64,000 nt of DNA from a virus: positions 9,652 to 73,651 of the IMG/VR virus record IMGVR_UViG_3300013005_000034; one strand, written 5' to 3'. Made by a program: the position numbers and the translations under genes. Below, piece after piece: positions 3,969-18,646 of this stretch. The notes beneath the pieces were generated by a model. The model did no database searches. It was not told the DNA's origin and was given only the letters and a program-made list of their open reading frames with translations. Each line of letters opens with the position of its first letter. The first letter of the stretch is position 1.

Positions 3969-4130
3969 GATATAGAATAATGACAATTATATTGTTTTTC
4001 CCTTGCTGTTTGCTTGATTTTTTATTCTTATTAATCATTTATTTGCCTCTTTGGATAGTATGTGGAACTAAATTAACATCAAGGCAACCACTATTAGAAT
4101 GGATATTTGAACAATCAAATAATAAACACA

Positions 4131-4403
4131 ATGAAAACTAAAGAAGAAATAGAACAGTTGGCAGAAAAAGAATATAGAGAATATCCTAACAACCCTTTAG
4201 ATGAACCAGCATGGCATTATAACAAGGATATACATTGCCATAAAAAAAGAAAAGCATTTATCAATGGCTACACTCAATGCCAAGAAAATATTAGTGAAAT
4301 TTTAAAAAAAGCTATTGAATTTGGTTATCAATTAAGGAACAATAATAAACCTATAAATAGTGGAATTGATTGGGTAAATGAATTTAAAAAAACAAAAAAA
4401 TAA
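4131..4403 (+). CDS. hypothetical phage protein
   Basis: Likely start ATG 4131 (MKTKEEIEQLAE). Confidence 0.6.
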   Translation: MKTKEEIEQLAEKEYREYPNNPLDEPAWHYNKDIHCHKKRKAFINGYTQCQENISEILKKAIEFGYQLRNNNKPINSGIDWVNEFKKTKK

Positions 4404-4410
4404 TTTTATC

Positions 4411-4608
4411 ATGAATTGGGAAGCATTTAAAAAAATGACCTTTAAACAAAAGTTATTCACGATTTTTGTTGTTTGTCCAATATTTTTCATTTTTATTATC
4501 CCTTTGAGCAAAGCGGTTGCTAATAAAATCTATGAAAAAAAGAAATATAAAAAAGTAATCAAAAAAGGTTTGCTTTGGGATACTGAATACTTAATAGAAA
4601 AAGACTAA
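4411..4608 (+). CDS. small membrane protein
   Basis: One hydrophobic segment; likely start MNWEAF. Confidence 0.55.
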   Translation: MNWEAFKKMTFKQKLFTIFVVCPIFFIFIIPLSKAVANKIYEKKKYKKVIKKGLLWDTEYLIEKD

Positions 4609-4609
4609 T

Positions 4610-4864
4610 ATGAAAACTAAAGAAGAATTTATAGCAAACTACTTAGATAAAAGTAAAAGGTTGAAAAACCACAACTTACCTTATGGATTACAGTATCTCA
4701 TCTTAGTAGCACAGGTAGAAGAAGATGCCGAAAAGAAGTATAAATCTTACCTTAAAAAACAACAAAATAATGATATTATTTGTCCTAAATGCGGAGGAGA
4801 TAGTTGGAAGTTTAATGCTGTAAAAACAACTATTAAATATTGTAAATGTGGACATGATTTTTAA
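4610..4864 (+). CDS. small Zn-ribbon protein
   Basis: C-terminal CPKCG...CKCGH. Confidence 0.6.
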   Translation: MKTKEEFIANYLDKSKRLKNHNLPYGLQYLILVAQVEEDAEKKYKSYLKKQQNNDIICPKCGGDSWKFNAVKTTIKYCKCGHDF

Positions 4865-4887
4865 CTCACTAAACAAAAAAGATTAAT

Positions 4888-5118
4888 ATGACTAATGGAG
4901 AATATCAACATTTAACAAATGGTTTATTTACTAAACTTAATAGAATAAGCAAAGTATCTAAATATGCAAAGCAAGAAATTCACGATATTTTAAACGAAGA
5001 ATTAAGTGAGCAAGATATTGAAATGGCTCATTCTCGTTTTATTTCTATGATTGAACAAATTGATATATTATCAAGTGAAATTAAAGAGAATTATAAACTA
5101 TTAAACAAACAAGACTAA
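4888..5118 (+). CDS. hypothetical protein
   Basis: Ends NKQD* in the recurrent junction repeat. Confidence 0.6.
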   Translation: MTNGEYQHLTNGLFTKLNRISKVSKYAKQEIHDILNEELSEQDIEMAHSRFISMIEQIDILSSEIKENYKLLNKQD

Positions 5119-5119
5119 T

Positions 5120-5311
5120 ATGAAAAAAACAACATCTATAAAGAAAATATTATGCTTTTTAGGAATACACAAATTAGTATATTATCAAAAAGGACTACAT
5201 ACATCTATAATAGGTTGTACAAGATGCAACAAAACATATTTAGTAGGAGATGTAGAAATATATAATTGTGATTTTGAATTAAAACTAACAAGTAAAAACA
5301 AACAAGATTAA
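5120..5311 (+). CDS. small Zn-binding protein (DUF1660-like)
   Basis: LCFLGIHK...CTRC; ends NKQD*. Confidence 0.55.
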   Translation: MKKTTSIKKILCFLGIHKLVYYQKGLHTSIIGCTRCNKTYLVGDVEIYNCDFELKLTSKNKQD

Positions 5312-5334
5312 TAACAACTAAAAACAAATAACAA

Positions 5335-5622
5335 ATGAAAATACAGCCAAACAAAAAACTAAATAAGTTAAGCAAATTCGATTTAGAATATGTTTTTAAT
5401 TCAGCATTTCCAAAAATACCTAAAGAGGTAGATGAAATTATCATAGCTCACGAAGAAGATTATGTGTTAATAACTAAATTGGGTTGTACTTTAGTTCTAT
5501 TTAGCGATTATAGTATTGAGGTGTTTTCAAACATTATGCCTATTAGGGAAATTAATTTAGTTAATATAACAAACTCTCTAATTGATGTTAGAGCATTAAA
5601 AATCGAAAAAAATGAAAAGTAA
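5335..5622 (+). CDS. hypothetical protein
   Basis: ORF in operon. Confidence 0.55.
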   Translation: MKIQPNKKLNKLSKFDLEYVFNSAFPKIPKEVDEIIIAHEEDYVLITKLGCTLVLFSDYSIEVFSNIMPIREINLVNITNSLIDVRALKIEKNEK

Positions 5623-5998
5623 AGTAAATACTGAATACAAAAAGTGTAGTCATTGCGGAAGTGAAAACATGGTGTCTGATTACCACTATAAGAGTGAAGA
5701 ACTTTATGAGAGTTGCGATGTTTGCGGATTTTACTATTCCAAAATATTATTAAATAATATTGAGGATGGTAACTACCCTAATGATTGGAAACCTGAATAT
5801 AAAGAAACGAAAGGGCTAACTGGATTTGTATTTAAGATTTTCAGTTTTGATTTAGAGGGTTTTTCAGTATGCTTTTGTGAAAAAAAGGATTTAGAAGCAC
5901 TTATAGATAGTTTAGAGAATGACGAATCAGTAGATTTTTTTGGAGTTACATTTAAAGGTAAAAACGGATGTTACAAAACACAAATATTTAAACAATGA
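5612..5998 (+). CDS. Zn-finger protein
   Basis: CSHCG...CDVCG. Confidence 0.6.
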   Translation: MKSKVNTEYKKCSHCGSENMVSDYHYKSEELYESCDVCGFYYSKILLNNIEDGNYPNDWKPEYKETKGLTGFVFKIFSFDLEGFSVCFCEKKDLEALIDSLENDESVDFFGVTFKGKNGCYKTQIFKQ

Positions 5999-6276
5999 GA
6001 ATAGTATCAGAAATTATTAAAACAAACAGGTTGAAAAAAGGAATTTCAACAAAAGAATTTTCAAAGTATTTAGGAATATCTGAATCTATGCTTTCGAGAA
6101 TAGAGGCAGGAAATAGAAAAATTAGTTCTAATAAGCTAAATAAAGTAGCTAAATTTCTTGAACTCCCTGAAAGAGAAATTAAAGTTCATTATTTAATTGA
6201 TGACATAAAGAATAAATTTTCAAATGATAGTAATTTTAAAGAAGCAATTAAAAGATTAAGCCATGAACACAACTGA
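5995..6276 (+). CDS. XRE-family helix-turn-helix regulator
   Basis: RLKKGISTKEFSKYLGISESMLSRIEAGNR. Confidence 0.85.
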   Translation: MRIVSEIIKTNRLKKGISTKEFSKYLGISESMLSRIEAGNRKISSNKLNKVAKFLELPEREIKVHYLIDDIKNKFSNDSNFKEAIKRLSHEHN

Positions 6277-6601
6277 ACTACTTAATAAAATAAATTACAA
6301 TCCAAAACTTGTAGAAGAAATTATGAATTTCTTTGAGGGTAAGCATAGAATAAAAACATCTTTTGAAAAGTTTTGTAATAAACACTACATAGATGTTAGT
6401 CCTTCTATATTGTTTGATTTTTTTGATAGCATAAATATAAAAATAGCAATTTTACCTTTAAATAATACTGACTTTTGGACTTGTAGAATTTTTACTACCA
6501 ATGGTATTATAATTCTAAATGATTTCTACAATAGAAAAGATGCAATATTAGGCGGATTAGATAGAGCTTTATACATATATAGTAATGGATTTGAATTTTA
6601 A
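6263..6601 (+). CDS. hypothetical protein
   Basis: Overlapping operon ORF. Confidence 0.55.
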   Translation: MNTTELLNKINYNPKLVEEIMNFFEGKHRIKTSFEKFCNKHYIDVSPSILFDFFDSINIKIAILPLNNTDFWTCRIFTTNGIIILNDFYNRKDAILGGLDRALYIYSNGFEF

Positions 6602-6971
6602 TATGAAAACAAAAGATATATTATTGGCAATACAAGAATTTGAAAAAATTGATGATTTAATATGTTTCAAAGAAGAAATAAAATCCTTTAATGGTAAATC
6701 TCTTAGTATTAATAACCAAGTTTATTTACTTGATAATATAGAGGAATTGAAAAGATTATATATTAATGAAGTTTGCGAAAAAAGGAAATATACAAAAGAT
6801 AAGATTGAAAACATTAAAATTTTTGAATATAGAGTTGAAGATTTTATAGATATTTTATATTCCCACCTCATCAGCGAAAATCTAATAAGCATAATTTCTA
6901 ATGCTATTATAAGCGATATTACAACAAAAATTTTTAATGATATTATAAAAGAAAAAATAAACAATAAATAA
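6585..6971 (+). CDS. hypothetical protein
   Basis: Overlapping operon ORF. Confidence 0.55.
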   Translation: MDLNFNMKTKDILLAIQEFEKIDDLICFKEEIKSFNGKSLSINNQVYLLDNIEELKRLYINEVCEKRKYTKDKIENIKIFEYRVEDFIDILYSHLISENLISIISNAIISDITTKIFNDIIKEKINNK

Positions 6972-6978
6972 AAAACAA

Positions 6979-7203
6979 ATGGAACAATTAGAACAACAAT
7001 TAAATGAAAAAATGCTACAAATAGCAAAAGATTACATTCAGAGAAGAAATGATAAACCTTTTGAGCAATACGAGGAGGCAAATTATCTTAATGAAAAATA
7101 CCTTTCAGTAAAAAATGAATTTGAAAAGGAAGGCGATTTTTATATAATCTTAAATGAGTGCATAAAAGTAGTTTTAGGAAAAACAAAAAAAAATACAATA
7201 TGA
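6979..7203 (+). CDS. hypothetical protein
   Basis: ORF after an A-rich leader. Confidence 0.55.
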   Translation: MEQLEQQLNEKMLQIAKDYIQRRNDKPFEQYEEANYLNEKYLSVKNEFEKEGDFYIILNECIKVVLGKTKKNTI

Positions 7204-7355
7204 AAATTAAAAAAAGAAAAATTAAAAACCCTTGTACTATTTGTGGTAAAGAAGTTCGTTGGGGAATTGATGGATGCCCTATTGTTGAAAAAGGCAAAGA
7301 TTTTGAAACTTTATTGGGTGGAGTAAAAGGTATGAAGCATTATGAGTGCAAATAA
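7200..7355 (+). CDS. small Zn-binding protein
   Basis: CTICG...HYEC; likely start ATG 7200. Confidence 0.5.
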   Translation: MKIKKRKIKNPCTICGKEVRWGIDGCPIVEKGKDFETLLGGVKGMKHYECK

Positions 7356-7366
7356 AATTTTTAACA

Positions 7367-7415
7367 TAACGGTTTGCAAATAGGCAATCGTTTTAATGTT
7401 GCTTATTTGCTGTTA
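7367..7415. repeat. attC-like hairpin site 1
   Basis: TAAC-GGTTT-GCAAATAGGCAA...TTGCTTATTTGC-T-GTTA. Confidence 0.8.
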
Positions 7416-7453
7416 GCACCAATACGGATTATTAACAACAAAAATTAAATAAG

Positions 7454-7840
7454 ATGAAAGAATTTAAAAAAGAAAATTTAGAATTTTACTTACCTGATAC
7501 ATTTAAAGGATTAAGTAAAGATTATTTACTTGAATGTATCTTCAATGATGAGATACAGAAAAAATGGAATCCTGATGTTGGAGATATTATTATTGGTTGC
7601 ACTGGCAATATTTTTGTAATTGGGGTTAAAGAAACATTACATGAAAGTATTGGTGGGGCGAGATATTATTTTGGTGGTGGCTCTTGTAATAGAGATGGTG
7701 GTAATATATTAGACAGCACATTTTGTTATACCGCAAATGAATCAGGTAAGTTTTATCACACATTAAAAGGTGAAATTCAAAATATTTATCATTCGTGTAT
7801 TAGAGATTTTAGATACGTTCCTTATCCACACGAAAGGTAG
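7454..7840 (+). CDS. cassette-borne hypothetical protein
   Basis: Flanked by perfect 14-bp IR GTTAGCACCAATAC (7412-7425) / GTATTGGTGCTAAC (7840-7853). Confidence 0.75.
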   Translation: MKEFKKENLEFYLPDTFKGLSKDYLLECIFNDEIQKKWNPDVGDIIIGCTGNIFVIGVKETLHESIGGARYYFGGGSCNRDGGNILDSTFCYTANESGKFYHTLKGEIQNIYHSCIRDFRYVPYPHER

Positions 7841-7849
7841 TATTGGTGC

Positions 7850-7898
7850 TAACGGTTTGCGTATAAAAAATCGTTTTAATGTTTTTTATACGCTGTTA
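7850..7898. repeat. attC-like hairpin site 2
   Basis: TAACGGTTTGCGTATAAAAAATCGTTTTAATGTTTTTTATACGCTGTTA; one mismatch to 14333-14381. Confidence 0.85.
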
Positions 7899-7924
7899 TA
7901 TTTAGTTTTTTAAAACTTTTACAA

Positions 7925-8110
7925 ATGAAAAATATAGAAGAAGCAATACAACTTAACTCAATAGATGAAATTGAGGAAGAAATAAGACAACGAAAGGAAT
8001 TAAGAGCAACGATGGTTGGTCAATTATATCCAAGAATATTAACTGACGAGATTTATAAACTCAATGAAAAGTTGTGGAATATAAGACACTCAAAAGTTTT
8101 AAAAACTTGA
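7925..8110 (+). CDS. cassette-borne hypothetical protein
   Basis: Flanked by 23/26 IR at 7895-7920 / 8092-8117. Confidence 0.7.
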   Translation: MKNIEEAIQLNSIDEIEEEIRQRKELRATMVGQLYPRILTDEIYKLNEKLWNIRHSKVLKT

Positions 8111-8113
8111 ATA

Positions 8114-8228
8114 TAACCGCTAACAGATATATGTAGTTTTAACACAATATTTAATAATATGGAAGAAAGTAAAAATTTAGAACAAAATTTGAATAAGAGT
8201 AATGAAAAATTACATATATCTAATGTTA
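8114..8228. repeat. attC-like hairpin site 3 (long loop)
   Basis: TAAC...AGATATATGTAGTTTT / AAAATTACATATATCT...GTTA. Confidence 0.75.
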
Positions 8229-8407
8229 GTTGTAGTTTATCATACCAACCAAGTTATGTTGAAACTGTTTGTGAAGGTGTGTTTTTCAGAATTAAAGCAC
8301 CATTGATATTCAGTGCTGATGTTTTAGCTTATGCTGGTATATTTTCTTTGTTAGACAAAAAACACACCTTTGAATATTATTGCTTAAAATATCTATCTGA
8401 AAGATAA
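8159..8407 (+). CDS. cassette protein whose N-terminus is encoded inside the att-like site
   Basis: ATG 8159 lies in the loop of site 3 and the ORF reads KLHISNVSCSL across GTTA; 16/17 IR at 8225-8241 / 8403-8419. Confidence 0.7.
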   Translation: MEESKNLEQNLNKSNEKLHISNVSCSLSYQPSYVETVCEGVFFRIKAPLIFSADVLAYAGIFSLLDKKHTFEYYCLKYLSER

Positions 8408-8415
8408 ATTACAAC

Positions 8416-8540
8416 TAACGGTTTGCGTGTATAAGAAGTGGCGGATTAGAACTCCAAAACTTTCAGCAAACGCAGAACTTAATTAGAATTACAAAACATT
8501 AAATAACCAAGAAACCCGCCATTTTTTATACACGCTGTTA
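8416..8540. repeat. attC-like hairpin site 4 (long loop)
   Basis: TAACGGTTT-GCGTGTATAAGAAGTGGCGG / CCGCCATTTTTTATACACGC-TGTTA. Confidence 0.8.
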
Positions 8541-8570
8541 GTGGCTGGGCTTTTCACAAATTGAAACAAA

Positions 8571-8747
8571 ATGAACAAAATATTGATATGTGTATTATTG
8601 CAAATCGTTCTTTTTATTCCATTTTATTTGATATGGAGAAATGATTGTAAAACGATAGGTAAAGACAACTTGGCTGTTAGCTTACAAGAACGATTTTTGT
8701 ATTGGCTAATATTTTGTCCAATTTGGTTGGTTGGTGTGTTGGATTAG
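8571..8747 (+). CDS. cassette-borne small two-TM membrane protein
   Basis: 58-aa ORF not in track (MNKILICVLLQIVLFIPFYLIW...); 13/15 IR at 8537-8551 / 8746-8760. Confidence 0.7.
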   Translation: MNKILICVLLQIVLFIPFYLIWRNDCKTIGKDNLAVSLQERFLYWLIFCPIWLVGVLD

Positions 8748-8756
8748 CCTTGCCAC

Positions 8757-8845
8757 TAACTTACTTCTTTACGCTACAATTAAGGAAATAAAAAGTTATT
8801 AACAATTGCATAATTAAATAAAATAATTACTAATTTTGACCACAA
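8757..8845 (+). repeat. 89-bp array-terminal element (candidate attI-like site plus Bacteroidota promoter), copy 1
   Basis: 82/89 identical to 15443-15531; starts with TAAC; contains GTTATTAAC and TAATTTTG (8831-8838). Confidence 0.8.
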
Positions 8846-9100
8846 ATGATACTAAAGTTTAAATACGGTTTTGAATACAATGATTTTCTTTATGGATGGA
8901 ACAATAAAGAATTATACAGATTGCCCTCTAAGAGTGGCAATAAATCTTATGGATTAAAGAAATTAGATTCTATTGTAGTTGGTAACTCAATTGGATATAG
9001 AATTAAACAACAAAAGTTCTCTTTAAAACAACTTAAAGATAGAACGATATTCATAGACAAAGAATATCAAGTTATTAGCGATACAGTTGATATACCTTAA
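8846..9100 (+). CDS. hypothetical protein, weakly similar to 12605-12853
   Basis: ELYRL...GYRI...FS pattern resembles EIYQL...YYRI...YS. Confidence 0.6.
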   Translation: MILKFKYGFEYNDFLYGWNNKELYRLPSKSGNKSYGLKKLDSIVVGNSIGYRIKQQKFSLKQLKDRTIFIDKEYQVISDTVDIP

Positions 9101-9151
9101 AAAATCACAAACAAACAATAAACCAAAACACAAATCAAAATCACAAACAAC

Positions 9152-10345
9152 ATGAAAAGACAAACCACCCTCGCAGAATTGGTAACGGAGTTGAAAGACC
9201 AAAATCTGCAAAAAAAAGATTTCGTAGTTCCTGCAAATCTTTTATCAATGGAAAATGGAAAATTAGTAGTGAACAATTATAGTTCAAACGATTCTCTACA
9301 AAAGATACTTACAGAAGTAGGTATTCAATCAGAGGATTCCAATAAACTAATTTTAAATTGCTTACCTGTAATTCATCAAAACTTATCAGATAAATGCGAT
9401 ATTCCTCGTAAATACTATAATCGTATTCAAGGACTAAAAGACCAAACACTAATTGATACAAATGTTACTCATTGGTTAAAATCCATGAAAGGAAATGTTT
9501 TTTTAAGAACATTTATTGACAAAGATGAACAAAATGGATTCGCAAGAGCATTACTTTCAGATAGATATAACGTAATTGATAACTTTGATGTTTTATTAGC
9601 TACACTTGAAGCAGTTAAGAATAGTGGATTAAACTTAAAGATTGAAGATAACGGTTGTGATTTATCAGAATCTAAAATGTATGTAAGATTTGTTGCTCCT
9701 GAAATTGAAATTAACGCACCCGATTTATTAAAAAACTACAAAAATCCAAAAGGTAATAGTAATGTAGGTGATGGTATTATTACTGGATTTGTTGTTACTA
9801 ATAGCGAAATAGGGCAAGGTTCATTTAATATCAGTCCAAGAGCTGTTATATTAAAGTGCCAAAACGGAATGGTATTTAAAAATGATGCCTTTGGTAAAAT
9901 TCACTTAGGTTCAAAAATGGAACAATATTCTCAAATTGATTGGAGCGAAGAAACTAAAAGAAAAAATTACGAGTTAATTCAGGCGCAAGTAAAAGATGCG
10001 GTTAAGAAATTCACAAGCGAAGATTTTTTAGCACAAAAAATAAGTGAATTAAACGAATATGCTGAAATTGAATTAAAACATCCTATTGAAACAGTTAAGA
10101 ATGTTAGCAAATTATTAAACATTACCGAAGAAAAAGAAAAAAGTATTCTTGACTTCTTTATGAGAGGTGGCGATTTTAGTTACATGGGAGTAAGTCAGGC
10201 ATTAACATTCTTTGCTCACGAAACAAAAGATGCAGACGAAGCTCACGATTTAGAAACAACAGCTATTGAAATTTTACCAAAAATTAAAGAGTTGGATAAA
10301 CCCTCTGTTTCAAAATCAGTTAAAACTCAAATGAGTTTAAATTAA
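9152..10345 (+). CDS. DUF932/DUF945-like phage protein
   Basis: RALLSDRY..IDN, ITGFVVTNSEIG.GS...P....L.CQNGM and HLG motifs. Confidence 0.72.
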   Translation: MKRQTTLAELVTELKDQNLQKKDFVVPANLLSMENGKLVVNNYSSNDSLQKILTEVGIQSEDSNKLILNCLPVIHQNLSDKCDIPRKYYNRIQGLKDQTLIDTNVTHWLKSMKGNVFLRTFIDKDEQNGFARALLSDRYNVIDNFDVLLATLEAVKNSGLNLKIEDNGCDLSESKMYVRFVAPEIEINAPDLLKNYKNPKGNSNVGDGIITGFVVTNSEIGQGSFNISPRAVILKCQNGMVFKNDAFGKIHLGSKMEQYSQIDWSEETKRKNYELIQAQVKDAVKKFTSEDFLAQKISELNEYAEIELKHPIETVKNVSKLLNITEEKEKSILDFFMRGGDFSYMGVSQALTFFAHETKDADEAHDLETTAIEILPKIKELDKPSVSKSVKTQMSLN

Positions 10346-10362
10346 TAATTTAGGAAATAAAA

Positions 10363-10386
10363 AAAGGGGGAAATCACGCCCCCTTT
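10363..10386 (+). terminator. stem-loop, probable intrinsic terminator
   Basis: AAAGGGGG-aaatcacg-CCCCCTTT after the stop codon. Confidence 0.55.
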
Positions 10387-10499
10387 CTAAACCAAAGACA
10401 CTATGTCAAAATAACACTAACGCCACAATAGGCGATACTAAATTATAAATTAAATAAACAATTAATTAATTTTTATATTATACAACTAAATTGTAAAAA

Positions 10500-11387
10500 A
10501 TGAACATCAGTCAATCACTACTAAAATCCCTATTAGATTATCGTAATGGAAAAGAATGTGGATTAATATTTAAGGCAAAGTATATAGATGGAAGATACGA
10601 TTTATTTCCTCCCTCCGATGCACAAAATGTAGGTGCATGGTTTGAATATATGGCTACTGGTAGCATACCTAAAAATGGTATAGTGCCAAAAGCAGAATAT
10701 ATGAAAAGAGGTAAAGATGAAAATGGCAACCCTGAACTTACTGCCGATTATCGCTTAATGAGAGAACATATAGATAATTTCAAAAAGAATATGGAGAGTT
10801 ACTCATTAGATATTATTACAGCAGGAGAAGATATTAAAGTTTTATATCCTAATTCTTTAGAAGAATATGGAGAAGAAGTTTATTTAACAGGAACTCTTGA
10901 TGTAAGAGCAAGAGCAAATAAAGATATTTTTGCTAAATACCAAGATACTATCGTTAAGGTAGCTTCAAAAGATGAAGAAGTTATTATTGATATTAAAACG
11001 ACTGGATTGTTAGACGATAAATGGTCGGAAATGGGCTGGGAGATTAATAATCTATCAAATAAAATTAAACTTGTTACTCAACCTGTTCACTATAAATTTA
11101 TTGAGTATTTAAAAACAGACAAAGATGTACCTTTTATATTTATGTTGTTCAATTCTAAAAACTCAAAAGATGCAAGAATTATTGATTTTAAAGTTGATAG
11201 TTCATCTTTTGAAGAACATAAAGCGTTTATTGAATCGGGAGTTGAAAATATGTTGCATTTGAGAAAATATGGTTTCAAAGCGTTGCCATCACTTGAAAAA
11301 TGTTCAAAATGTCCTTTGAATACTGATTGTAAGTTTAAAGCAGAAATTTCGCCAATAACTATATTTTATTTTGCTCATCAGGTTTAA
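10500..11387 (+). CDS. PD-(D/E)XK exonuclease, Cas4/AddB-like
   Basis: GTLDV...IIDIKT core; N-terminal Cys plus C-terminal CxxCP-x4-C as possible Fe-S ligands. Confidence 0.75.
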   Translation: MNISQSLLKSLLDYRNGKECGLIFKAKYIDGRYDLFPPSDAQNVGAWFEYMATGSIPKNGIVPKAEYMKRGKDENGNPELTADYRLMREHIDNFKKNMESYSLDIITAGEDIKVLYPNSLEEYGEEVYLTGTLDVRARANKDIFAKYQDTIVKVASKDEEVIIDIKTTGLLDDKWSEMGWEINNLSNKIKLVTQPVHYKFIEYLKTDKDVPFIFMLFNSKNSKDARIIDFKVDSSSFEEHKAFIESGVENMLHLRKYGFKALPSLEKCSKCPLNTDCKFKAEISPITIFYFAHQV

Positions 11388-11392
11388 TATAT

Positions 11393-11400
11393 TATGTTTG
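11393..11400 (+). promoter_or_regulatory. Bacteroidota-type -7 promoter element
   Basis: TATGTTTG matches TAnnTTTG upstream of the GIY-YIG gene. Confidence 0.55.
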
Positions 11401-11404
11401 TATC

Positions 11405-11520
11405 GCACAATTCAACTAAAATGAAATTACAAAAAAAATATTTAAAAAAAACCTTTAAGCAAGTAGGAATCCTCTATTTTTAGTTGATTGTGCAACCTAC
11501 TTGCGAGAAGGGATTTTTAA
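11405..11520 (+). promoter_or_regulatory. structured 5' leader with a 20-aa uORF
   Basis: 11405-11421 is complementary to 11478-11493 and 11459-11467 to 11496-11504; uORF at 11421-11483. Confidence 0.5.
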
Positions 11521-11522
11521 TC

Positions 11523-12335
11523 ATGGAAACATCATTAATTATTGAAATTTCATCTTTGCCTTGTATAGATGATAAAAGAGGGCGTTATAGAACAATAGAA
11601 TTATATCCAAAAATTAGTGGAATTTATAAAATAACATCTCCTAATGGCTCTATTTATATTGGTTTATCAAATGATATTTATTATAGGATTTATAGTTGTT
11701 ATAAGAAATTAAGATGTAAGGCTCAACATAAAATATATAATTCTTTAATTAAATATGGTATTGATAATCATAAATTTGAAATTATTCATATTGTTGAAAA
11801 TTTTGAAGAATATGAGAAAATTAAAATTTTAAGAAAATTAGAAATAGCTTATATACAAAAATATAATTCATTTTATGGAAATAATAATTTTGGAATGAAT
11901 TTAACAAAAGGAGGCGAAATAATTGAATTAACAGATGAAACTAAAAAAATAATGAATGATAAGAAAAAAGGTAGGATTGTTTCCCAAGAAACAAGAGAAA
12001 AGTTAAGGAAAATAAATTTAGGTAAAAAATTATCACAAGAACATAAAGATAAAATTAGTATATCTCATAAAGGAAAAATTGTTTCAGAATTAACAAAAAA
12101 AAGATTAAGTGAATCTCACAAAGGAGAAAAACATAGTTTTGAACGAATACAAAAAAAAATTGGAAGTAAACAAAATCCTGAAACAATAAAAAAAAGAATT
12201 GATAAGATTAGCGGTATTAATCATTGGACAAAAAAATATGGCGGTCATTCAGAGCAAACAAAGATAAAAATAAGTATATCACTCAAAGAAAGGCATAAAA
12301 AAATGTCTAATAAGAATGAAAAAAACACTAATTAA
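11523..12335 (+). CDS. GIY-YIG homing endonuclease with NUMOD3 repeats
   Basis: SGIYKIT...IYIG, MNLTKGG and repeated SxETxxKIS.xxKG; likely start ATG 11523. Confidence 0.88.
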   Translation: METSLIIEISSLPCIDDKRGRYRTIELYPKISGIYKITSPNGSIYIGLSNDIYYRIYSCYKKLRCKAQHKIYNSLIKYGIDNHKFEIIHIVENFEEYEKIKILRKLEIAYIQKYNSFYGNNNFGMNLTKGGEIIELTDETKKIMNDKKKGRIVSQETREKLRKINLGKKLSQEHKDKISISHKGKIVSELTKKRLSESHKGEKHSFERIQKKIGSKQNPETIKKRIDKISGINHWTKKYGGHSEQTKIKISISLKERHKKMSNKNEKNTN

Positions 12336-12627
12336 AAGAAAAAAATTAAGTAAGAGTTTAAGAATAAAAATATTTGAGAGGGATAATTATGAATGTCAGT
12401 TGTGCTATGACAATTTAATAGATAAAAAAGATTTAAGAGTAATAGACCATAAAATACCTCTTTCAAAAGGAGGCAGTAACTCAATATCAAATCTTTGGCT
12501 ACTTTGTAATGATTGTGATAAAAGAAAGAAAAATAAATTGTTTCCTGAATTGATGAAACAATACATAAAGGGTAAGTTAAATTATCTTTCTAATTTAAGA
12601 TTTAATGGAAATCGTTATAATAAGTGA
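12316..12627 (+). CDS. HNH endonuclease
   Basis: RDNYECQLC...DHKIPLSKGG.N...NLWLLCNDC. Confidence 0.85.
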   Translation: MKKTLIKRKKLSKSLRIKIFERDNYECQLCYDNLIDKKDLRVIDHKIPLSKGGSNSISNLWLLCNDCDKRKKNKLFPELMKQYIKGKLNYLSNLRFNGNRYNK

Positions 12628-12853
12628 ATATGAAAATTTACCTTACATAGTTAAAAGCGAGAATGGAGAAATATATCAGTTAAGTTATTATGATACTAAA
12701 AAAAGAATTAAAAAATACAAAATATTAATACCTAAAGAGCATAACGGAAGTATGTATTATAGAATTAATAGTGAGAGATATTCAGATTATAGATTAAAAA
12801 CAATTGAGATTAAAGTTTATAAAAGAATTAACCTAAATAAAATAAAAAAATGA
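12605..12853 (+). CDS. hypothetical protein
   Basis: Operon ORF; weak similarity to 8846-9100. Confidence 0.55.
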   Translation: MEIVIISEYENLPYIVKSENGEIYQLSYYDTKKRIKKYKILIPKEHNGSMYYRINSERYSDYRLKTIEIKVYKRINLNKIKK

Positions 12854-13140
12854 AACCATTAAAAATCAAAGGAGTTAAATTAAAAAAAGGAGAAGAATTA
12901 TTACATTATTATCCTTTTTGTTATTGCATAGCAAAATCTACTGAAAGTAGTGCTTTATTTGTAATACCTCCACAAAATAAAGGAACTGTTGCAGATAATG
13001 GTTATTTAAGCGTTTGTTTTGATTATAAATTATGTAAAGATGTAAAAGTAGGAGATTGGTGCGAAGTAGGTTATATAAGTGATTATAGTAAAGGAGAAAA
13101 TAAAGTGCTTAAAATATTAAAATCTAAAAAAAATAAATAA
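12850..13140 (+). CDS. hypothetical protein
   Basis: ATGA overlap with the upstream gene. Confidence 0.55.
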   Translation: MKPLKIKGVKLKKGEELLHYYPFCYCIAKSTESSALFVIPPQNKGTVADNGYLSVCFDYKLCKDVKVGDWCEVGYISDYSKGENKVLKILKSKKNK

Positions 13141-13372
13141 TATGAATAAAAAAATTAATATTATAGGAATCATTATTTTTTTATTTTCTCTTTCATATTT
13201 AACAATATACACTATGATTATTGATTTATATTATGGTATATCTATGGGATTAATTTCAATTTTATTTATAATAATTATATTAAAAAGTAAAAAAAAGAAA
13301 AATGAATAAGTATGGAAAATAAAAATACTTTCTATGGGATTGAAATATTTAAAAACTAAAAAAAATAAAAAT

Positions 13373-13410
13373 AAATAAAAACAAACAAAATGAAAACAAC
13401 AAAAACAAAA
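13373..13410 (+). repeat. 38-bp direct repeat, copy 1
   Basis: AAATAAAAACAAACAAAATGAAAACAACAAAAACAAAA, identical to 15554-15591. Confidence 0.7.
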
Positions 13411-13434
13411 ACAAAAATGAAAACAACAAAAAAA

Positions 13435-13662
13435 ATGGAACACAAAAATTTGAATACAAAAGAAACCGCCAATAGCGATTTAGGTGCTGTTAGCGGTAGT
13501 TTGAGGGAACAATCTCTTGAATGGTTTTTCGCAAAAAGTGAAATTGAGAAACACGATTTAAAAGACAAACACTTTCCAAACACACCAATACAGCATAGTA
13601 GGCAATGGGGATTTCATTTCACTTTTGGTCAAATTGAGGAAATGTATGTTAAAGAACGGTAA
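13435..13662 (+). CDS. cassette protein starting within an att-like site remnant
   Basis: MEHKNLNTKETANSDLGAVSGSL reads across GCTGTTA; 14/15 IR at 13489-13503 / 13663-13677. Confidence 0.7.
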   Translation: MEHKNLNTKETANSDLGAVSGSLREQSLEWFFAKSEIEKHDLKDKHFPNTPIQHSRQWGFHFTFGQIEEMYVKER

Positions 13663-13740
13663 CAAATTACCGCTAACGGTTTGCAAATATATTTCAGTTG
13701 CGGTAAAAATAATAATAACTTAATTAAATAAATAAAAAAA

Positions 13741-14295
13741 ATGGAAAACACAAAAAAAGCATACAAAGAAATATTTAAAGTCTTAAATAAATATAAAGAT
13801 GTTATTGTTATTGATATTAAAACATTAGAGGAAAAATCAAAACTCCATTTATTTGGATTAGAATTAAAAGAAGTTTACGGACTTGAAATCAATGAGAAAC
13901 GTATCAATAATATGCAATATCAGGAATTAAAAGACAACGTATATCTAACTTTTATTGATAGCGAAACGAGAACTATAAGCTGGGAAGATAATGGCAAAAA
14001 ACCAAAAGGAGAAAGTTTGATTAAGTTTAGTTATCCAACAGGAGCTTACATTTTTGGTGGAGATTATCCTACTGATTTTTTCCAAAAGTTTTTTTTAGAA
14101 TTGAAATCATTTAATCCCGATTATTGCGATAGCGCCAATAAAAGCCTGTATTTTAAATTGGAAAATGCAAAAGAAATATTTAATAGTTATGATTCAATAA
14201 TAAAAAAATATTACGAATTAAACAAAGAAGATATTAAACAAAGACAGATTTTAAAAATGAAAGCCGATTTAGAAAAATTAGAAGCAAGTAAGTAA
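13741..14295 (+). CDS. cassette-associated hypothetical protein
   Basis: Lies between half-site 13674 and complete site 14333. Confidence 0.7.
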   Translation: MENTKKAYKEIFKVLNKYKDVIVIDIKTLEEKSKLHLFGLELKEVYGLEINEKRINNMQYQELKDNVYLTFIDSETRTISWEDNGKKPKGESLIKFSYPTGAYIFGGDYPTDFFQKFFLELKSFNPDYCDSANKSLYFKLENAKEIFNSYDSIIKKYYELNKEDIKQRQILKMKADLEKLEASK

Positions 14296-14332
14296 CGCAC
14301 CCACAGGCGGGGAGGGTTTTAAAACTTGTACC

Positions 14333-14381
14333 TAACGGTTTGTGTATAAAAAATCGTTTTAATGTTTTTTATACGCTGTTA
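14333..14381. repeat. attC-like hairpin site (array 2)
   Basis: 48/49 identical to 7850-7898. Confidence 0.85.
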
Positions 14382-14484
14382 TAACCAGTAGGGATTATTA
14401 AGTACAAATGCTCATTCGGAGAAGTAAACAAAAAATTAAAACAAAAAAAGTGTAGGGAATAATTAATCAATTAAATAATAAAAA

Positions 14485-15357
14485 ATGACAACAGAAAAAC
14501 AATTTGGCGACTTATCACATTTTGCAAAAAGAGATGTAGAACTTTTTAGAAGTTCAGACCAAAACGAAACCGCTATCTATTTTACGGAATTAGAAGATAA
14601 GCAAAGAGAAACTGCGAAAGCGTTTTTTGAAATACTGCGATTTGGCTTGGATGGTGGCGACCATCAAATATATGTTCGTTTCCCAAATACTGACCATTTT
14701 GTAGAAATGATTGGTGGTGGATTTGGTTCAGGTAGAGGGTATATGAAAGTAGCTGATGGTAAAAATGTTTGGGAGGATAAAAACAAAGCACCATTTAGAA
14801 TCTATTCACATAATAAGGATTTACTTTTCATAATTGGTAGAACTGATTGGACTGGAGAATTTAATTTTATGACAAAAGTTGCAAGTTATGATAAAGGAAA
14901 TCCATTCAATCATCCTTATCCTAATGAAACATTTGTGAATTTCAAAGAGATTGAAAAAGCACTTTCAATGAAATATTTAAAGATACCTGAAAGTATAAGA
15001 AAGATTGAATATTGCTACAAAACTAAAGATACAACACCAAAATATTTTGTAGTGGATTATCCAGCTTACAATTTCAAATATGACAACCATAGATTTTTTG
15101 TGATTGAAAATGAACATATAAAAGAATTTGGGATTAAAAACTTTGTAAGATACAAAGATGGTGGAACAACTATCATTACTGTAACCGATGAAAACGGAAT
15201 TGAACACAAATTCTTTTCACCAACATCATTGCCTGAAAAAACGCTTTGTGAAAAGTGGGATAAAACTGAATTGATAGAAGCAAGTGAAACTGAAAAGCAA
15301 AAACTTACAGAACTTTTGAATTTGAATGTAGAACCAAATATAGTTGACAAAGAATAA
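14485..15357 (+). CDS. cassette-borne hypothetical protein (290 aa)
   Basis: 14/15 IR at 14378-14392 / 15432-15446, plus inner perfect 21-bp IR at 14429-14449 / 15381-15401. Confidence 0.75.
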   Translation: MTTEKQFGDLSHFAKRDVELFRSSDQNETAIYFTELEDKQRETAKAFFEILRFGLDGGDHQIYVRFPNTDHFVEMIGGGFGSGRGYMKVADGKNVWEDKNKAPFRIYSHNKDLLFIIGRTDWTGEFNFMTKVASYDKGNPFNHPYPNETFVNFKEIEKALSMKYLKIPESIRKIEYCYKTKDTTPKYFVVDYPAYNFKYDNHRFFVIENEHIKEFGIKNFVRYKDGGTTIITVTDENGIEHKFFSPTSLPEKTLCEKWDKTELIEASETEKQKLTELLNLNVEPNIVDKE

Positions 15358-15442
15358 TCATTTAGTCATTTGTGTGTGGATTTTTTTGTTTTAATTTTTT
15401 GAACGATAAAGTTAATTCGGAGCAGTCCACACCTATTGGTTA

Positions 15443-15531
15443 TAACTTATTTATTTGCGCTACAATTAAGGAAATAAAAAGTTATTAACAATAGTATAAT
15501 TATGTAAAATAATTACTAATTTTGACCACAA
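15443..15531 (+). repeat. 89-bp array-terminal element, copy 2
   Basis: 82/89 identical to 8757-8845; TAATTTTG at 15517-15524. Confidence 0.8.
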
Positions 15532-15553
15532 TACAGAAAATAAGAAGCACGAG

Positions 15554-15591
15554 AAATAAAAACAAACAAAATGAAAACAACAAAAACAAAA
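15554..15591 (+). repeat. 38-bp direct repeat, copy 2
   Basis: Identical to 13373-13410. Confidence 0.7.
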
Positions 15592-15597
15592 TAAAAA

Positions 15598-16413
15598 ATG
15601 AAAACAAAAATGAAAACAAAAATTGTAACATTAGCAATCGCATTAGTATTAATTTTAACATCATGCGGAACACTTGTAGAGCCTAACTATGGTGGTGTAT
15701 TAATGCAAAATTATGGAAAGAATGGTAAATCAGATTTTACCGAAGTTCAGGGGAGGGTATCAACTTGGGGTATGGGAACGGAATTGTATCAAGTGCCTAT
15801 GTGGGAGCAAAGAGGACAAGTAGATGATACATTACATTTAATTTCTGCCGATAATAACGAAATTGAAGCATACCCTAAATATTCATATCAGGTAAACAAA
15901 GGTCGTTTAGTTGATGTAGTATTTGATAATAGACAATTAGGAAAGGGAAAAGAATTTTTATCATCTGTTGAAAGTAATTCTTTAGAACCAAGAATTTATG
16001 ATATTATAAAAGAAGAAAGCCGTAAATATATTACTGATACCCTTATGTCTATTGGTGGTGCTTTAAAGTTTGAAAAGGATTGTGAGGCATTAGTTAGAAA
16101 AGCATTTGAAGATAAAGGTTTCAAACTATTAACTTTTGTCGCTCAACTTAAATATTCCGATAAAGTTCGAGAAAAGATTGACCAAAGATTAGAGGTTAAT
16201 ACAAACATATCGGTTATTGACCAACAAATAGCAGAACAAAAGAAAAAGAATGAATTGGAAAAGTTAAGAACAGAGTTTATTCTTATTCAAAATCAGGCAT
16301 TAACACAAGCATACCTACAAAACAAATGGCTTGACAAATGGGATGGTAAGTTAAGCACTTATAGTTCAAATGGTAATATGCCTATTCCAATGATTAATGC
16401 AAATCAAAAATAA
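15598..16413 (+). CDS. SPFH/band-7 domain lipoprotein
   Basis: Lipobox LTSC, V.P.Y.GV motif and C-terminal coiled coil ending WLDKWDG.L. Confidence 0.75.
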   Translation: MKTKMKTKIVTLAIALVLILTSCGTLVEPNYGGVLMQNYGKNGKSDFTEVQGRVSTWGMGTELYQVPMWEQRGQVDDTLHLISADNNEIEAYPKYSYQVNKGRLVDVVFDNRQLGKGKEFLSSVESNSLEPRIYDIIKEESRKYITDTLMSIGGALKFEKDCEALVRKAFEDKGFKLLTFVAQLKYSDKVREKIDQRLEVNTNISVIDQQIAEQKKKNELEKLRTEFILIQNQALTQAYLQNKWLDKWDGKLSTYSSNGNMPIPMINANQK

Positions 16414-16420
16414 AATCATA

Positions 16421-16639
16421 ATGAAAAAAATATTTAAAATAGCCATAATCTTTTGTGTTATGGCTTTATGTTCCTGCGATTGCGAAGAACATAAATATAG
16501 AATAATATCAAATGGGGATGTTTATTTCTCAAATGAATACAAAAAAGAAGGCGACTGCATAAAGTTTACCAATTACGACAATGGTAAACTAACAATATGC
16601 GGTAACTATTCAATAGTAGAAACAATTTCAACACAATAA
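16421..16639 (+). CDS. small lipoprotein
   Basis: Signal peptide with LCSC lipobox. Confidence 0.55.
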   Translation: MKKIFKIAIIFCVMALCSCDCEEHKYRIISNGDVYFSNEYKKEGDCIKFTNYDNGKLTICGNYSIVETISTQ

Positions 16640-16641
16640 CA

Positions 16642-17205
16642 ATGAAAAATACAAAAAAACAAAAAACAAACTATCCATTGTATTATAAATACATAGGGGT
16701 TACAACAACAGAGGGTTTTACTAAAGATAGAATTTATAAAATTATAAATCGAGAACATTTAGAAACACCTTGCAATTTCATAGATGATTATGGCAAAAAA
16801 AATGGACATTCAGGCAATAATCATAAATATTTTAAACCATCAACATTAAAAGCATTTATGCAACAAGAATCTTTAAATAAAAAAACAAGTATGAAAACAA
16901 CAAAAAAAACATTAGTAAATACAGATACTAATGGAGCAAAGAAAAACGTAAAAGATATTCAGTTTTTCGGAGATGGCGATACTTTTAAATTAATTAGCAA
17001 AGCATCATCTGTTAAAGAAGGTTGGATGAAATCAACCAAAGCAATGCAAATTGATACTGTTGGTTGTGTTGTTCAGGTTACTACACAGCAAGGTAATAAT
17101 ATTGCCGAAGCAGTTACTTTCGTTCCTAATGTAAAAATAAAGGAAACAAAAGATAAAGAGGGTAAAGTTATTTCAAGAAAACTAATAGCAATATATAATA
17201 TTTAA
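16642..17205 (+). CDS. two-part phage protein; C-terminal half resembles a common phage domain
   Basis: Internal ATG 16891 precedes KASS..EGWMKSTKAM....GCVVQVTTQQ. Confidence 0.6.
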   Translation: MKNTKKQKTNYPLYYKYIGVTTTEGFTKDRIYKIINREHLETPCNFIDDYGKKNGHSGNNHKYFKPSTLKAFMQQESLNKKTSMKTTKKTLVNTDTNGAKKNVKDIQFFGDGDTFKLISKASSVKEGWMKSTKAMQIDTVGCVVQVTTQQGNNIAEAVTFVPNVKIKETKDKEGKVISRKLIAIYNI

Positions 17206-17209
17206 AACA

Positions 17210-17830
17210 ATGGAACACAAAATTTTAAACACAGGAGATTATCTGATAATAGTAGATGACTCAGAGATTAAAGAAGGTGATTGGATTAAACCAAACGCTT
17301 ATAACACAATTATTAAAGCAACAAAAGTTCATACAACAGAATTTGTTCGAAGTGGTGTATTAAATGATTGTAAAAAAATCATAGCACACTTACCACTCAA
17401 CAACTCACCAATACTTGAAGGTGTAATTCTTTTACCACCACTTGAAGATGAGGTTGATAAATTTGAATCCTTTTTAGATAGAGAAATAGAATTAGGATTA
17501 AATACAAAAGAAACTATTGATAGAATAAAATGGTATTATCAACAATATTTCAAATCCAAACAGAAAAATTACACAGAGGAGGATTTGATGAAGGCGATTG
17601 ATATGGCAAGAGAATACACTCCAGATGTAGTTGGATTTACAAAAGATGAAATCATACAATCCCTTAATCAACCCAAGATGCCTGTTAAGTTTGTGTGCGA
17701 GATGAAAAAAGATTATAGAAAAAATGATGATGGTGAACCAATAGGTTTACCTGTGCATGAAACTTATAAACCTAAAACAACAACCAACTCACAAGGTATT
17801 ATTCAATGGGTAGGGGAATATATTTATTAA
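17210..17830 (+). CDS. hypothetical protein, paralog of 1852-2430
   Basis: Shares conserved blocks with 1852-2430. Confidence 0.7.
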   Translation: MEHKILNTGDYLIIVDDSEIKEGDWIKPNAYNTIIKATKVHTTEFVRSGVLNDCKKIIAHLPLNNSPILEGVILLPPLEDEVDKFESFLDREIELGLNTKETIDRIKWYYQQYFKSKQKNYTEEDLMKAIDMAREYTPDVVGFTKDEIIQSLNQPKMPVKFVCEMKKDYRKNDDGEPIGLPVHETYKPKTTTNSQGIIQWVGEYIY

Positions 17831-17850
17831 ACAACTAAAAACAAATAAAT

Positions 17851-18105
17851 ATGAAAAAACAAACAGCAGTAGAATGGTTCATTGAGCAATTAACTAAAAA
17901 TCCTCTACCTCAAAGTAAAGATGAATTTATAGATGGAGATTTAGTAGATATTATAAATAAAGCCAAAGAAATGGAAAAGCAGCAGATTATTGATGCTATT
18001 GTGGATACTCAAAAAGAGTATATTATCCAAGCAAGTTGTTATCCACCACAATTTATTCTTGACAAAGCTTTTAATTATTATAAAGAAACATTTAAACAAG
18101 ATTAA
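17851..18105 (+). CDS. small phage protein (KQTAVEW...KAKEMEKQQI family)
   Basis: Motifs shared with 18389-18646; ends KQD*. Confidence 0.65.
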   Translation: MKKQTAVEWFIEQLTKNPLPQSKDEFIDGDLVDIINKAKEMEKQQIIDAIVDTQKEYIIQASCYPPQFILDKAFNYYKETFKQD

Positions 18106-18123
18106 TAACTAAAAATAAACAAA

Positions 18124-18366
18124 ATGGAAAAAGATGAAATGAAGTGTTTAAGTTGCAATAAAGTAATTAAAGCACGAAACTTAAAAAGACATAGTAAGGT
18201 AAAACTACACTTGAAAAATGTAGAAAAGAAAGTTAATATTATGAAAGAGTATTCATACGAACAGGTTTGCTCACATACAGATAAGTATTTTGTGGGCGGA
18301 GTTTTTGGTGGGTATTGGTGTCCAAAATGTAATAGAAATGTAGATAGTGAAATTAAACAAGATTAA
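18124..18366 (+). CDS. small Zn-finger protein
   Basis: CLSC...H...H and CSH...CPKC; ends KQD*. Confidence 0.6.
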   Translation: MEKDEMKCLSCNKVIKARNLKRHSKVKLHLKNVEKKVNIMKEYSYEQVCSHTDKYFVGGVFGGYWCPKCNRNVDSEIKQD

Positions 18367-18388
18367 TAACAACTAAAAACAAATAAAA

Positions 18389-18646
18389 ATGGAAACTAAA
18401 AAACAATCAGCAGTAGAATTTGCAGTGGAACAATTAGAAAAATTTATCCCTGAAGGTAATCAAATAGCTATTGATGCTATTTTAGAAAAAGCCAAAGCAA
18501 TGGAAAAACAACAAATTATGGGTCGAAAATATACAGAAAGACAACTTGATGATGCTATTAGTTACGGTATAAATAATGGCAGAAAAGGTGATGTTACTAT
18601 AACAGATATAGATAATTTTATCAACTCACTAAACAAACAAGACTAA
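18389..18646 (+). CDS. small phage protein (KQSAVEF...KAKAMEKQQI family)
   Basis: Paralog of 17851-18105; ends NKQD*. Confidence 0.65.
   Translation: METKKQSAVEFAVEQLEKFIPEGNQIAIDAILEKAKAMEKQQIMGRKYTERQLDDAISYGINNGRKGDVTITDIDNFINSLNKQD

Follow-up and report, generated by a model that had tools for sequence, protein, structure and literature searches.

Two stretches of a 64,000-nt window of viral DNA (the whole stretch analysed, positions 9652-73651 of the 73,651-base, 73.6-kb record IMGVR_UViG_3300013005_000034, rated 62% complete) match each other at 82 of 89 positions, and each stands at the right end of an array in which single small open reading frames (ORFs) alternate with DNA hairpins. 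The account of this 89-bp element that we consider probable from the sequence comparisons is that it is a backbone border, composed of the TAAC that closes the last cassette, the remnant of a mini-hairpin site and an ancestral phage promoter, and that this composite was copied twice within the studied phage. An earlier note on the same DNA had read the element as an attI-like entry site fused to a promoter; the promoter, the TAAC boundary, the polarity of the arrays and the dependence of cassette genes on read-through held up, whereas the dedicated attI and the erosion proposed for one array end did not.

An element repeated at the ends of three arrays

Copies 1 and 2 of the element (window 8757-8845 and 15443-15531) align without gaps, and a 35-mer common to both occurs exactly twice in the window, while 0 of 100 shuffled sequences gave two matches. 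A further copy, copy 0, lies 2.8 kb upstream of the window (record 6805-6893) and is identical to the other two at 69/89 and 70/89 positions. The three copies are mutually 78-92% identical, and each lies at the border of a hypervariable region. All of them begin with TAAC directly after a hairpin-cassette array, one copy each for arrays 0, 1 and 2, and both edges are sharp in every copy, coinciding with a cassette border and a gene start. The genes that follow encode an 84-aa protein (copy 1), a lipoprotein (copy 2) and, after the remaining copy, a 144-aa protein. Outside this phage the exact core of the element had no match in other viral contigs, a blastn search with the element gave chance-level matches only, and a megablast search of 6900-16500 against named phages gave no match. 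An Rfam scan of 6800-16200 gave 0 matches at E<=1, and thus no known RNA family accounts for the hairpins or the element.

That the element is a functionless duplicated intergenic stretch kept by chance is very improbable. The genome does hold other internal duplications (coordinates below), but the core of the element is conserved in the same position in four phage lineages, and the sharp edges of all copies coincide with the cassette border and the gene start. It was also considered whether the element is an ORF-less cassette; this was rejected because its right edge has no TAAC.

The hairpin modules of the three arrays have the form TAACGKTTTGC...stem-loop...GCTGTTA, measure 49-125 nt and lie between single small ORFs. 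In the whole record the pattern TAACGKTTTG...GCTGTTA was found 8 times on the forward strand and 0 times on the reverse strand, and a reversed-pattern control gave 0 matches. Changes in the stems are compensating, and the spacers between foot and stem are asymmetric (5 nt vs 1 nt). The earlier note had stated that the element lacks such a hairpin, and this is correct for copies 1 and 0, which fold as single-stranded DNA no better than shuffled sequences (z -0.10 and z +0.79); copy 2, however, has a modest stem, TAACTT.ATTTATT / AAATAAAAAGTTA, with z -2.94 and 1 of 200 shuffles equally good. By the same measure true hairpin modules reach z -3.96 (7850-7898) and -2.41 (8416-8540). The supposedly eroded site at 13674, left of array 2, is a loop-less mini-palindrome and not clearly a product of decay.

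Two further candidate roles of the hairpins were tried and rejected. A function as intrinsic terminators is unsupported, since no hairpin module scores as a terminator and the element contains no terminator-like site. For IS200/IS605-type single-strand transposition, whose layout also combines a tetranucleotide with a hairpin, a Y1 transposase (PF01797) was found neither in the studied record nor in five large records that carry hairpins.

The TAAC edge as a predicted recombination junction

Sequence comparisons place an exact recombination junction at the left edge of the element and assign its first four bases, TAAC, to the last cassette; two independent comparisons agree on this point, where the earlier note had also put the start. 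The 58-aa ORF before copy 1 is 95% identical at the amino acid level in contig L119 and 90% in contig L073, and a three-way alignment of this cassette runs through ...TTGCCACTAAC and is lost at the next base, right after CTAAC. Beyond this TAAC the three sequences differ: L119 has an ordinary hairpin, L073 other DNA and the studied phage the element. The second comparison is internal to the record: the last 81 bases ahead of copy 2 recur with 94% identity in array 0 (record 4028-4108), and after ...GGTTATAAC an ordinary hairpin core follows in array 0 and the element in array 2.

Moreover, the cassettes that abut an element (three here and one in contig L191, a related phage) are complete, and their first bases are the reverse complement of their last bases, with GTTA plus an extension at the start against the extension plus TAAC at the end. 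The leading complementary run measures 9-14 in 6/8 cassettes, including all four that abut an element (9-10), whereas six across-hairpin controls gave runs of only 4-6. The cassette beside the element differs between the studied phage and L191, which are 88-90% identical; the L191 contig ends 440 bases on.

Cassettes 14378-15446 and record 3462-4108 (array 0) have a common leader and a common trailer around unrelated ORFs (290 aa vs 151 aa). The shared leader is 83% identical over ~170 nt (173) and the shared trailer 94% identical over 81 nt. Leader and trailer hold a 21-nt perfect inverted match, which would put the ORF in the loop of a very long hairpin, and the pair has the look of a cassette 'chassis' that can be reused. 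The TAA of the junction TAAC also serves as the stop codon of several cassette ORFs (record 3417-3420, 5022-5024, 6464-6466 and 6805-6807), and many other cassettes end in TAG-C-N-TTGC-NNN-TAAC.

A predicted ancestral promoter in the right half

The right ~51 bases of the element are predicted to be an old, conserved phage promoter. Its core, from AAAAGTTATTAAC through TAATTTTG to about +1, stands ahead of a conserved 84-aa gene in three related phages (L191, G001 and G002), each time directly before the gene and at the place orthologous to copy 1, in agreement with the promoter that the earlier note had proposed. The promoter is made up of the block AAAAGTTATTAACAA, a spacer of ~27 nt, TTAC-TAATTTTG and ACCACAA, and in a six-way alignment of the three copies with L191, G001 and G002 the invariant columns are AAAAGTT.T.AACAA ... 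TTAC ... A..TT ... CAC. The block AAAAGTTnTnAACAA is unchanged in 6/6 aligned promoters; the palindrome GTTATTAAC within it, which the earlier note had pointed out, is present in both copies of the window (in copy 2 at 15481-15489).

G001 and G002, about 80% identical at the amino acid level in a 397-aa protein, have 0 hairpins each vs 8 in the studied record, and each has the core (AAAAGTTnTnAACAA ... TTACTnnnTTTG) once, immediately ahead of its homologue of the 84-aa gene; only this orthologous copy was found when further copies were sought in the two genomes. The promoter half thus occurs there without cassettes. L191, a metagenome contig from a closer relative (88-90% amino acid identity), has an 88-nt element at the same place (L191:442-529) that begins with TAAC after a hairpin and a cassette and ends in ...TTACTAATTTTGACCACAA, followed by ATG. 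L191 also has the lipoprotein gene that follows copy 2 here (83% amino acid identity), with no element and no hairpins ahead of it.

The consensus of the Bacteroidota housekeeping sigma factor consists of a -33 box TTTG and a -7 box TAnnTTTG. Copy 1 resembles such sigma-A promoters in its -7 box TAATTTTG, which ends 7 nt before the start codon, suggesting that the predicted mRNA is leaderless or nearly leaderless. The same box is present in copy 2, copy 0 reads TATATTTA (7/8 match to TAnnTTTG), and the orthologous promoters have TAATTTTG, TATTTTTG and TAAATTTG. The element had been described as ending in this box; the box is indeed found in both copies of the window, but the similarity between them extends 7 bases further (ACCACAA), so that the box is not quite the last part of the element. 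On the + strand of the 34-kb block of + strand genes, 4 of 22 matches to TAnnTTTG are intergenic; two of these four lie in the element and 0 inside the arrays. The promoter differs from the Bacteroidota type in that its kept upstream part is the palindrome-containing AAAAGTTATTAACAA at about -45. A -33 TTG is found only in copy 1, and in G002 the distance from the upstream block to the -7 box differs by 12 nt, the block lying further away; hence the block looks like an activator or UP-type site rather than a -33 box. A scan for sigma-70 hexamers gave no enrichment (50 found vs 58.8 expected). A fourth match to the core pattern, at record 41799, was taken as chance; it lies in the minus-strand gene block, and the control gave 2 matches.

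The dependence of cassette genes on upstream read-through, which the earlier note had deduced, agrees with these data, as no intergenic TAnnTTTG occurs within the arrays and no hairpin module scores as an intrinsic terminator.

An arrangement of GTTATTAACAA plus the box is also present in unrelated viral contigs and downstream of an array in G005. In unrelated viral contigs AAAGTTATTAACAA is followed 25-45 nt on by TTACTnnnTTTG before genes, twice in tandem in one family; the AAAGTTATTAACAA word is a candidate target site for a common regulator of host or phage origin.

Polarity of the arrays and the array-end recombinases

Hairpins of this family were found in at least 118 viral contigs with the strict pattern, where a small number of recurring cores is found with many different flanks. 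Among same-core pairs of 180 hairpins, 23 share only the right flank, 0 only the left flank, 14 both and 496 neither. The ratio of 23 to 0 indicates that a hairpin core belongs with the gene on its right, and that the commonest detectable crossover is at TAAC.

Three of the five large hairpin-bearing records hold tyrosine recombinase genes, which lie 1-4 kb right of the hairpins on the same strand and are each preceded by ...TAAC; six more cases of this kind were found. A profile built from nine array-end recombinases has relatives in at least 558 viral contigs, and the locus counts given here rest on the best 80 recombinase loci of these. Upstream of the genes in these 80 loci (321 kb searched) there are 29 standard hairpins, all on the strand of the recombinase gene; the opposite strand has 0, and so does the DNA downstream (438 kb searched). 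The cassette-end marker TTGC-N2-4-TAAC was found 51 times upstream and 8 times downstream. As far as these sequences tell, the arrays are polar, as had been claimed, and end at the recombinase on the same side as at the element here.

The recombinases are 264-289 aa long, match PF00589 and PF13495, and have invariant catalytic residues (R..K..HxxR..H..Y). They score below every NCBIfam cut-off, with XerA_Arch as the best model, and among solved proteins an archaeal XerA-type one is the best relative, with Vibrio IntI4 ranking behind it. Against TIGR02249 (integron integrase) they reach 135-171 bits (cut-off 265) in two separate stretches, and about profile positions 178-238 are left unaligned between them; this skipped region is that of the IntI insertion, and the family is thus without the IntI-type extra domain. 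Ahead of the gene, mostly 46-56 nt before the ATG, 72/75 recombinase loci have [TC]AAC-N2-5-WTATR, with the consensus TAAC-TATTATATATA, while such a word occurs in 85/1600 random windows.

Read on the opposite strand, this layout would be that of a canonical integron with inverted ORFs. The recombinase would then point away from the array, the conserved site would end in G/TTA (the slash marks the crossover), and cassettes would run from TTA... to ...TAAC-core-G. The integron core consensus is given as G/TTRRRY by Qi et al. (2023, PMC9892861).

Remnant or entry site

The element itself has no trace of the TAAC-TATTATATATA consensus and reads TAAC-TTACTTCTTTACGC. It does not stand beside any integrase gene in the studied record, and in these 73.6 kb (62% complete) no PF00589 match at E<=1 and no tblastn match to the recombinase family proteins was found. 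A dedicated docking site, the attI of the earlier note, is not borne out by these results. The comparisons do place the element at the border between the backbone and the first cassette, with the predicted crossover at the TAAC core, as for an attI.

What follows the TAAC resembles half of a smaller module. The first 21 bases of the element are found unchanged in one other contig (Table 1) and are 95% identical to L152. The full mini-hairpin, TAACTTACTTCTTTGCGCTAC-loop-TAGCGAC..., is present in 24 viral contigs. It lies right of standard hairpins in 8/8 loci that hold both (9 hairpins upstream, 0 downstream), directly after complete cassettes in three short cases and in 0/80 recombinase loci, and in contig L175 it closes two separate stretches. 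A recurrent array cap thus does occur in phages without a recombinase, and half of this cap is present in the element.

A functional attI-type entry site in the first ~40 bases of the element is an alternative that we regard as possible, though on balance unlikely. A trans-acting Xer/IntI-like recombinase, from the missing part of the genome or from a co-infecting phage, would insert circular cassettes there at TAA/C, and the promoter would be fused to this site as Pint is to attI. The array geometry places the element at the attI-proximal end in 4/4 arrays (three here, one in L191) with the promoter in the position of Pint; the junction is exact, each adjoining cassette is complete, and this cassette is not the same in the otherwise similar L191. 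In addition, the left part is conserved in all three copies, and arrays of recombinase-less contigs are capped by the related mini-hairpin. Any array must nevertheless end at some border between TAAC and backbone, so that position alone proves nothing. The element is unlike the site kept before the recombinase genes, the record is without a recombinase, the bases just past TAAC differ in L191 (TTCCAAATTAGCG vs TTACTTCTTTACG in the element), the element does not include the mini-hairpin's right arm, and copies 0 and 1 are unstructured.

In the remnant account, which we prefer, the ~34 bases between TAAC and promoter would be the remains of a resident site where the first cassette entered; they resemble half of a mini-hairpin module and not a purpose-built attI. 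The side of the element would be the attI-proximal, growing end of the array, with the promoter where Pint lies, and new cassettes would be delivered by a Xer/IntI-like recombinase encoded in the missing 38% of the genome or by co-infecting phages. The ancestral promoter would start the next transcription unit at the ATG or a few bases before it. Once the composite had been copied twice within the studied phage, three transcription units would each begin right after an array, and in each array the cassette genes would be expressed by read-through from the copy of the promoter that lies upstream.

Several observations weigh against this account. The extra copies 0 and 2 end sharply after CCACAA, where there is no TAAC or GTTA, and the account has no mechanism for this sharp right edge. 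The tyrosine recombinase is missing not only from the studied record but also from two complete hairpin-bearing genomes, and 496 of the 533 same-core hairpin pairs share neither flank, indicating that exchange also takes place on the GTTA side or by another route, of which L119 is an example. The left part of the element is kept among the three copies and is looser in L191 (84%, over 80 columns from position 11); taken with the resemblance to the array cap, a selected recombination site would fit this left part at least as well as a remnant. For the promoter, copies 0 and 2 read ATAGTA at the position of the -33 TTG of copy 1 (21 nt upstream of the box), the box of copy 0 deviates as given above, and a sigma-70-type alternative, TTAACA-17-AATAAT, also fits.

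Some of these points would be explained if element copies and hairpin feet provided short homology for recombination by a phage exonuclease and annealase, with no site-specific enzyme and with the TAAC edge merely marking where homology stops. PeSLs, units of a terminator stem-loop and an early promoter that are thought to work through homologous recombination, act in this way in T4-type phages according to PMC2839356 and PMC4122927. The three similar copies border hypervariable regions, a PDDEXK exonuclease-like protein is encoded just downstream, and both the pairs that share neither flank and the two recombinase-less complete genomes fit such a route. We nevertheless hold it to be improbable. 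Element and hairpin modules share only TAAC at the junction, which is too short for homologous exchange and yet exact; the complementary cassette ends and the strict polarity towards the recombinase side are marks of site-specific insertion of circles; and the element has no stem-loop.

Feature coordinates and genome context

Table 1. Features of the arrays, the element and related loci. Positions are those of the window unless another record or contig is named
Feature	Position	Strand	Remark
Array 0	record 2599-6515		outside the window
Array 1	7367-8540		
Array 2	13674-14381		
Hairpin module (TAACGGTTTGC...GCTGTTA), array 1	7367-7415	+	
Hairpin module, array 1	7850-7898	+	core shared with arrays 0 and 2
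Long hairpin module, 125 nt, array 1	8416-8540	+	accompanies 58-aa ORF in L073
Relic of recombinase-side site, TAAC AGA TATATGTAG, inside array 1	8121-8136	+	82-aa ORF follows, not a recombinase
Last cassette of array 1, 58-aa ORF	8537-8760	+	bounds GTTAGTGGC...GCCACTAAC; complementary ends, leading run 9
Element copy 1, ancestral, TAAC to about transcription start (predicted)	8757-8845	+	directly before ATG of 84-aa gene
TAAC junction and left half of mini-hairpin module (TAACTTACTTCTTTACGCTAC)	8757-8777	+	21/21 identical to L080:1491-1511
Palindrome GTTATTAAC within AAAAGTTnTnAACAA	8795-8803	+	~40-47 nt upstream of predicted start; candidate activator/UP-type site
-7 box TAATTTTG of copy 1 (predicted)	8831-8838	+	start codon of 84-aa gene 7 nt downstream
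Conserved 84-aa gene, first of backbone block	8846-9100	+	62-88% amino acid identity in G001, G002 and L191
Loop-less mini-palindrome module, left of array 2	13674-13703	+	eroded in the earlier note
Hairpin module, array 2	14333-14381	+	
Last cassette of array 2, 290-aa ORF	14378-15446	+	ends match 15/18
Element copy 2, ahead of phrog_200 lipoprotein gene	15443-15531	+	specific to the studied phage
-7 box TAATTTTG of copy 2 (predicted)	15517-15524	+	
Array-end recombinase loci	L202-L281; L198:10704-11573; L199:3342-4157; L200:2221-3024; L201:2208-3008	- (L200, L201)	
Contigs with AAAGTTATTAACAA/TTACTnnnTTTG	L027/L031; L030/L043; L040/L046/L049; L041; L198:12397-12785		

The record has ~28% G+C and carries small + strand genes up to about window position 24200, followed by larger genes on the - strand. 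Family matches are phage-like and include an RNA ligase, a PDDEXK exonuclease-like protein, a GIY-YIG homing endonuclease, phrog_1362 and a phrog_200 lipoprotein. The 84-aa gene is followed by the gene for the 397-aa phrog_1362 protein and then by the exonuclease-like gene. The GIY-YIG gene (11484-12335) has its own intergenic TATGTTTG box; it lies between the exonuclease-like gene and a 103-aa gene here and in G001, and at other places in L191 and G002. Short A-rich tandem repeats (AAAACAAAAATGAAAACAAC-like) that contain several in-frame ATGs stand at the starts of a 90-aa ORF (13343-13450) and of the lipoprotein gene (15539-15640). The early region is internally duplicated also outside the element: 1842-2449 and 17203-17849 are 80-85% identical, these DNA blocks belonging to the paralogous genes 1735-2430 (231 aa) and 17210-17830 (206 aa), and further paralogous small ORFs lie at about 17851-18646.

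The studied record is that of a lake-water phage, probably with a Bacteroidota host. The runs that hold the region are labelled lake water metagenome, and none labelled RNA is among those listed as holding 8300-10300. DNA nearly identical to 8300-10300 was found in at least 15 lake-water runs that come from several studies with dates of 2018-2025, with 59-99% of sampled words present, which suggests that the phage lineage is persistent and widespread in lakes.

Relation to known systems and implications

A canonical integron consists of intI, attI with the promoters Pint and Pc, and cassettes with attC sites, and a CALIN is a cluster of attC sites without an integrase. Integrons are known as bacterial gene-capture devices. 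The arrays described here resemble integrons and CALINs in that single-ORF cassettes lie between imperfect palindromes of 49-125 nt with ...AAC / GTT... feet, in that each cassette has mutually complementary ends, and in that, in other phages of the family, the polar array ends at a tyrosine recombinase gene beside a conserved site. The promoter at the array border is directed away from the cassettes, as Pint is in integrons. In contrast to integrons, the ORFs are inverted, with the hairpin 5' of the gene and the genes read towards the side of the recombinase or element; the family recombinases, at 264-289 aa, have no IntI-specific insertion; the foot-to-stem spacers of the family are asymmetric; and the studied record has no recombinase and its element no recombinase-side motif of the family.

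According to Qi et al. (2023, PMC9892861), CALINs occur in virulent phages, and only a few attC clusters and integron fragments are reported from phages there. Polaribacter phage P12002L, a cultured marine Flavobacteriia phage that is among the phages listed as CALIN carriers in that report, has hairpins of similar build: in its sequence (L168, record 38900-39250) hairpins of the form TAACGG...TTGTTA lie between small ORFs, near HNH endonuclease and methyltransferase genes.

PeSLs, as described in PMC2839356 and PMC4122927, are likewise short repeated regulatory sequences that border hyperplastic regions of small ORFans in lytic phages and are linked to the insertion, deletion and swapping of genes. 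Here promoter and hairpins are separate units, so that the element does not unite a terminator stem-loop and a promoter in one repeat, and the 4-base TAAC junctions, the complementary cassette ends and the dedicated recombinase family at array ends also set it apart from PeSLs. A full-text literature search gave no account of phage arrays with a Xer-like recombinase and its conserved site at one end, nor of a repeated promoter-linked array cap.

Following one repeat led to a family of hairpin cassettes, a family of recombinases and a conserved recombinase-side site. For annotation this gives a simple rule, in which the TAAC immediately ahead of this promoter marks the border between flexible and fixed genome, and the promoter sets the start of each transcription unit. 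We raise only tentatively, and as rather doubtful, the wider idea that lake-water phages, probably of Bacteroidota hosts, run an integron-type system on a small Xer-like recombinase without the IntI insertion, and that recombinase-less phages such as the studied one keep 'orphan platforms' loaded in trans by the recombinases of phages that co-infect the cell. Such a platform would be an entry site derived from the mini-hairpin and fused to a promoter, with three copies in the studied phage; the inverted cassettes would ride early phage transcripts, and a common docking standard would let accessory genes pass between phages that are not related. Should the system work in the way its geometry indicates, it would account for the entry and exit of small ORFans in the early regions of these phages, and it would show that hairpin-site recombination can do without the IntI-specific domain.

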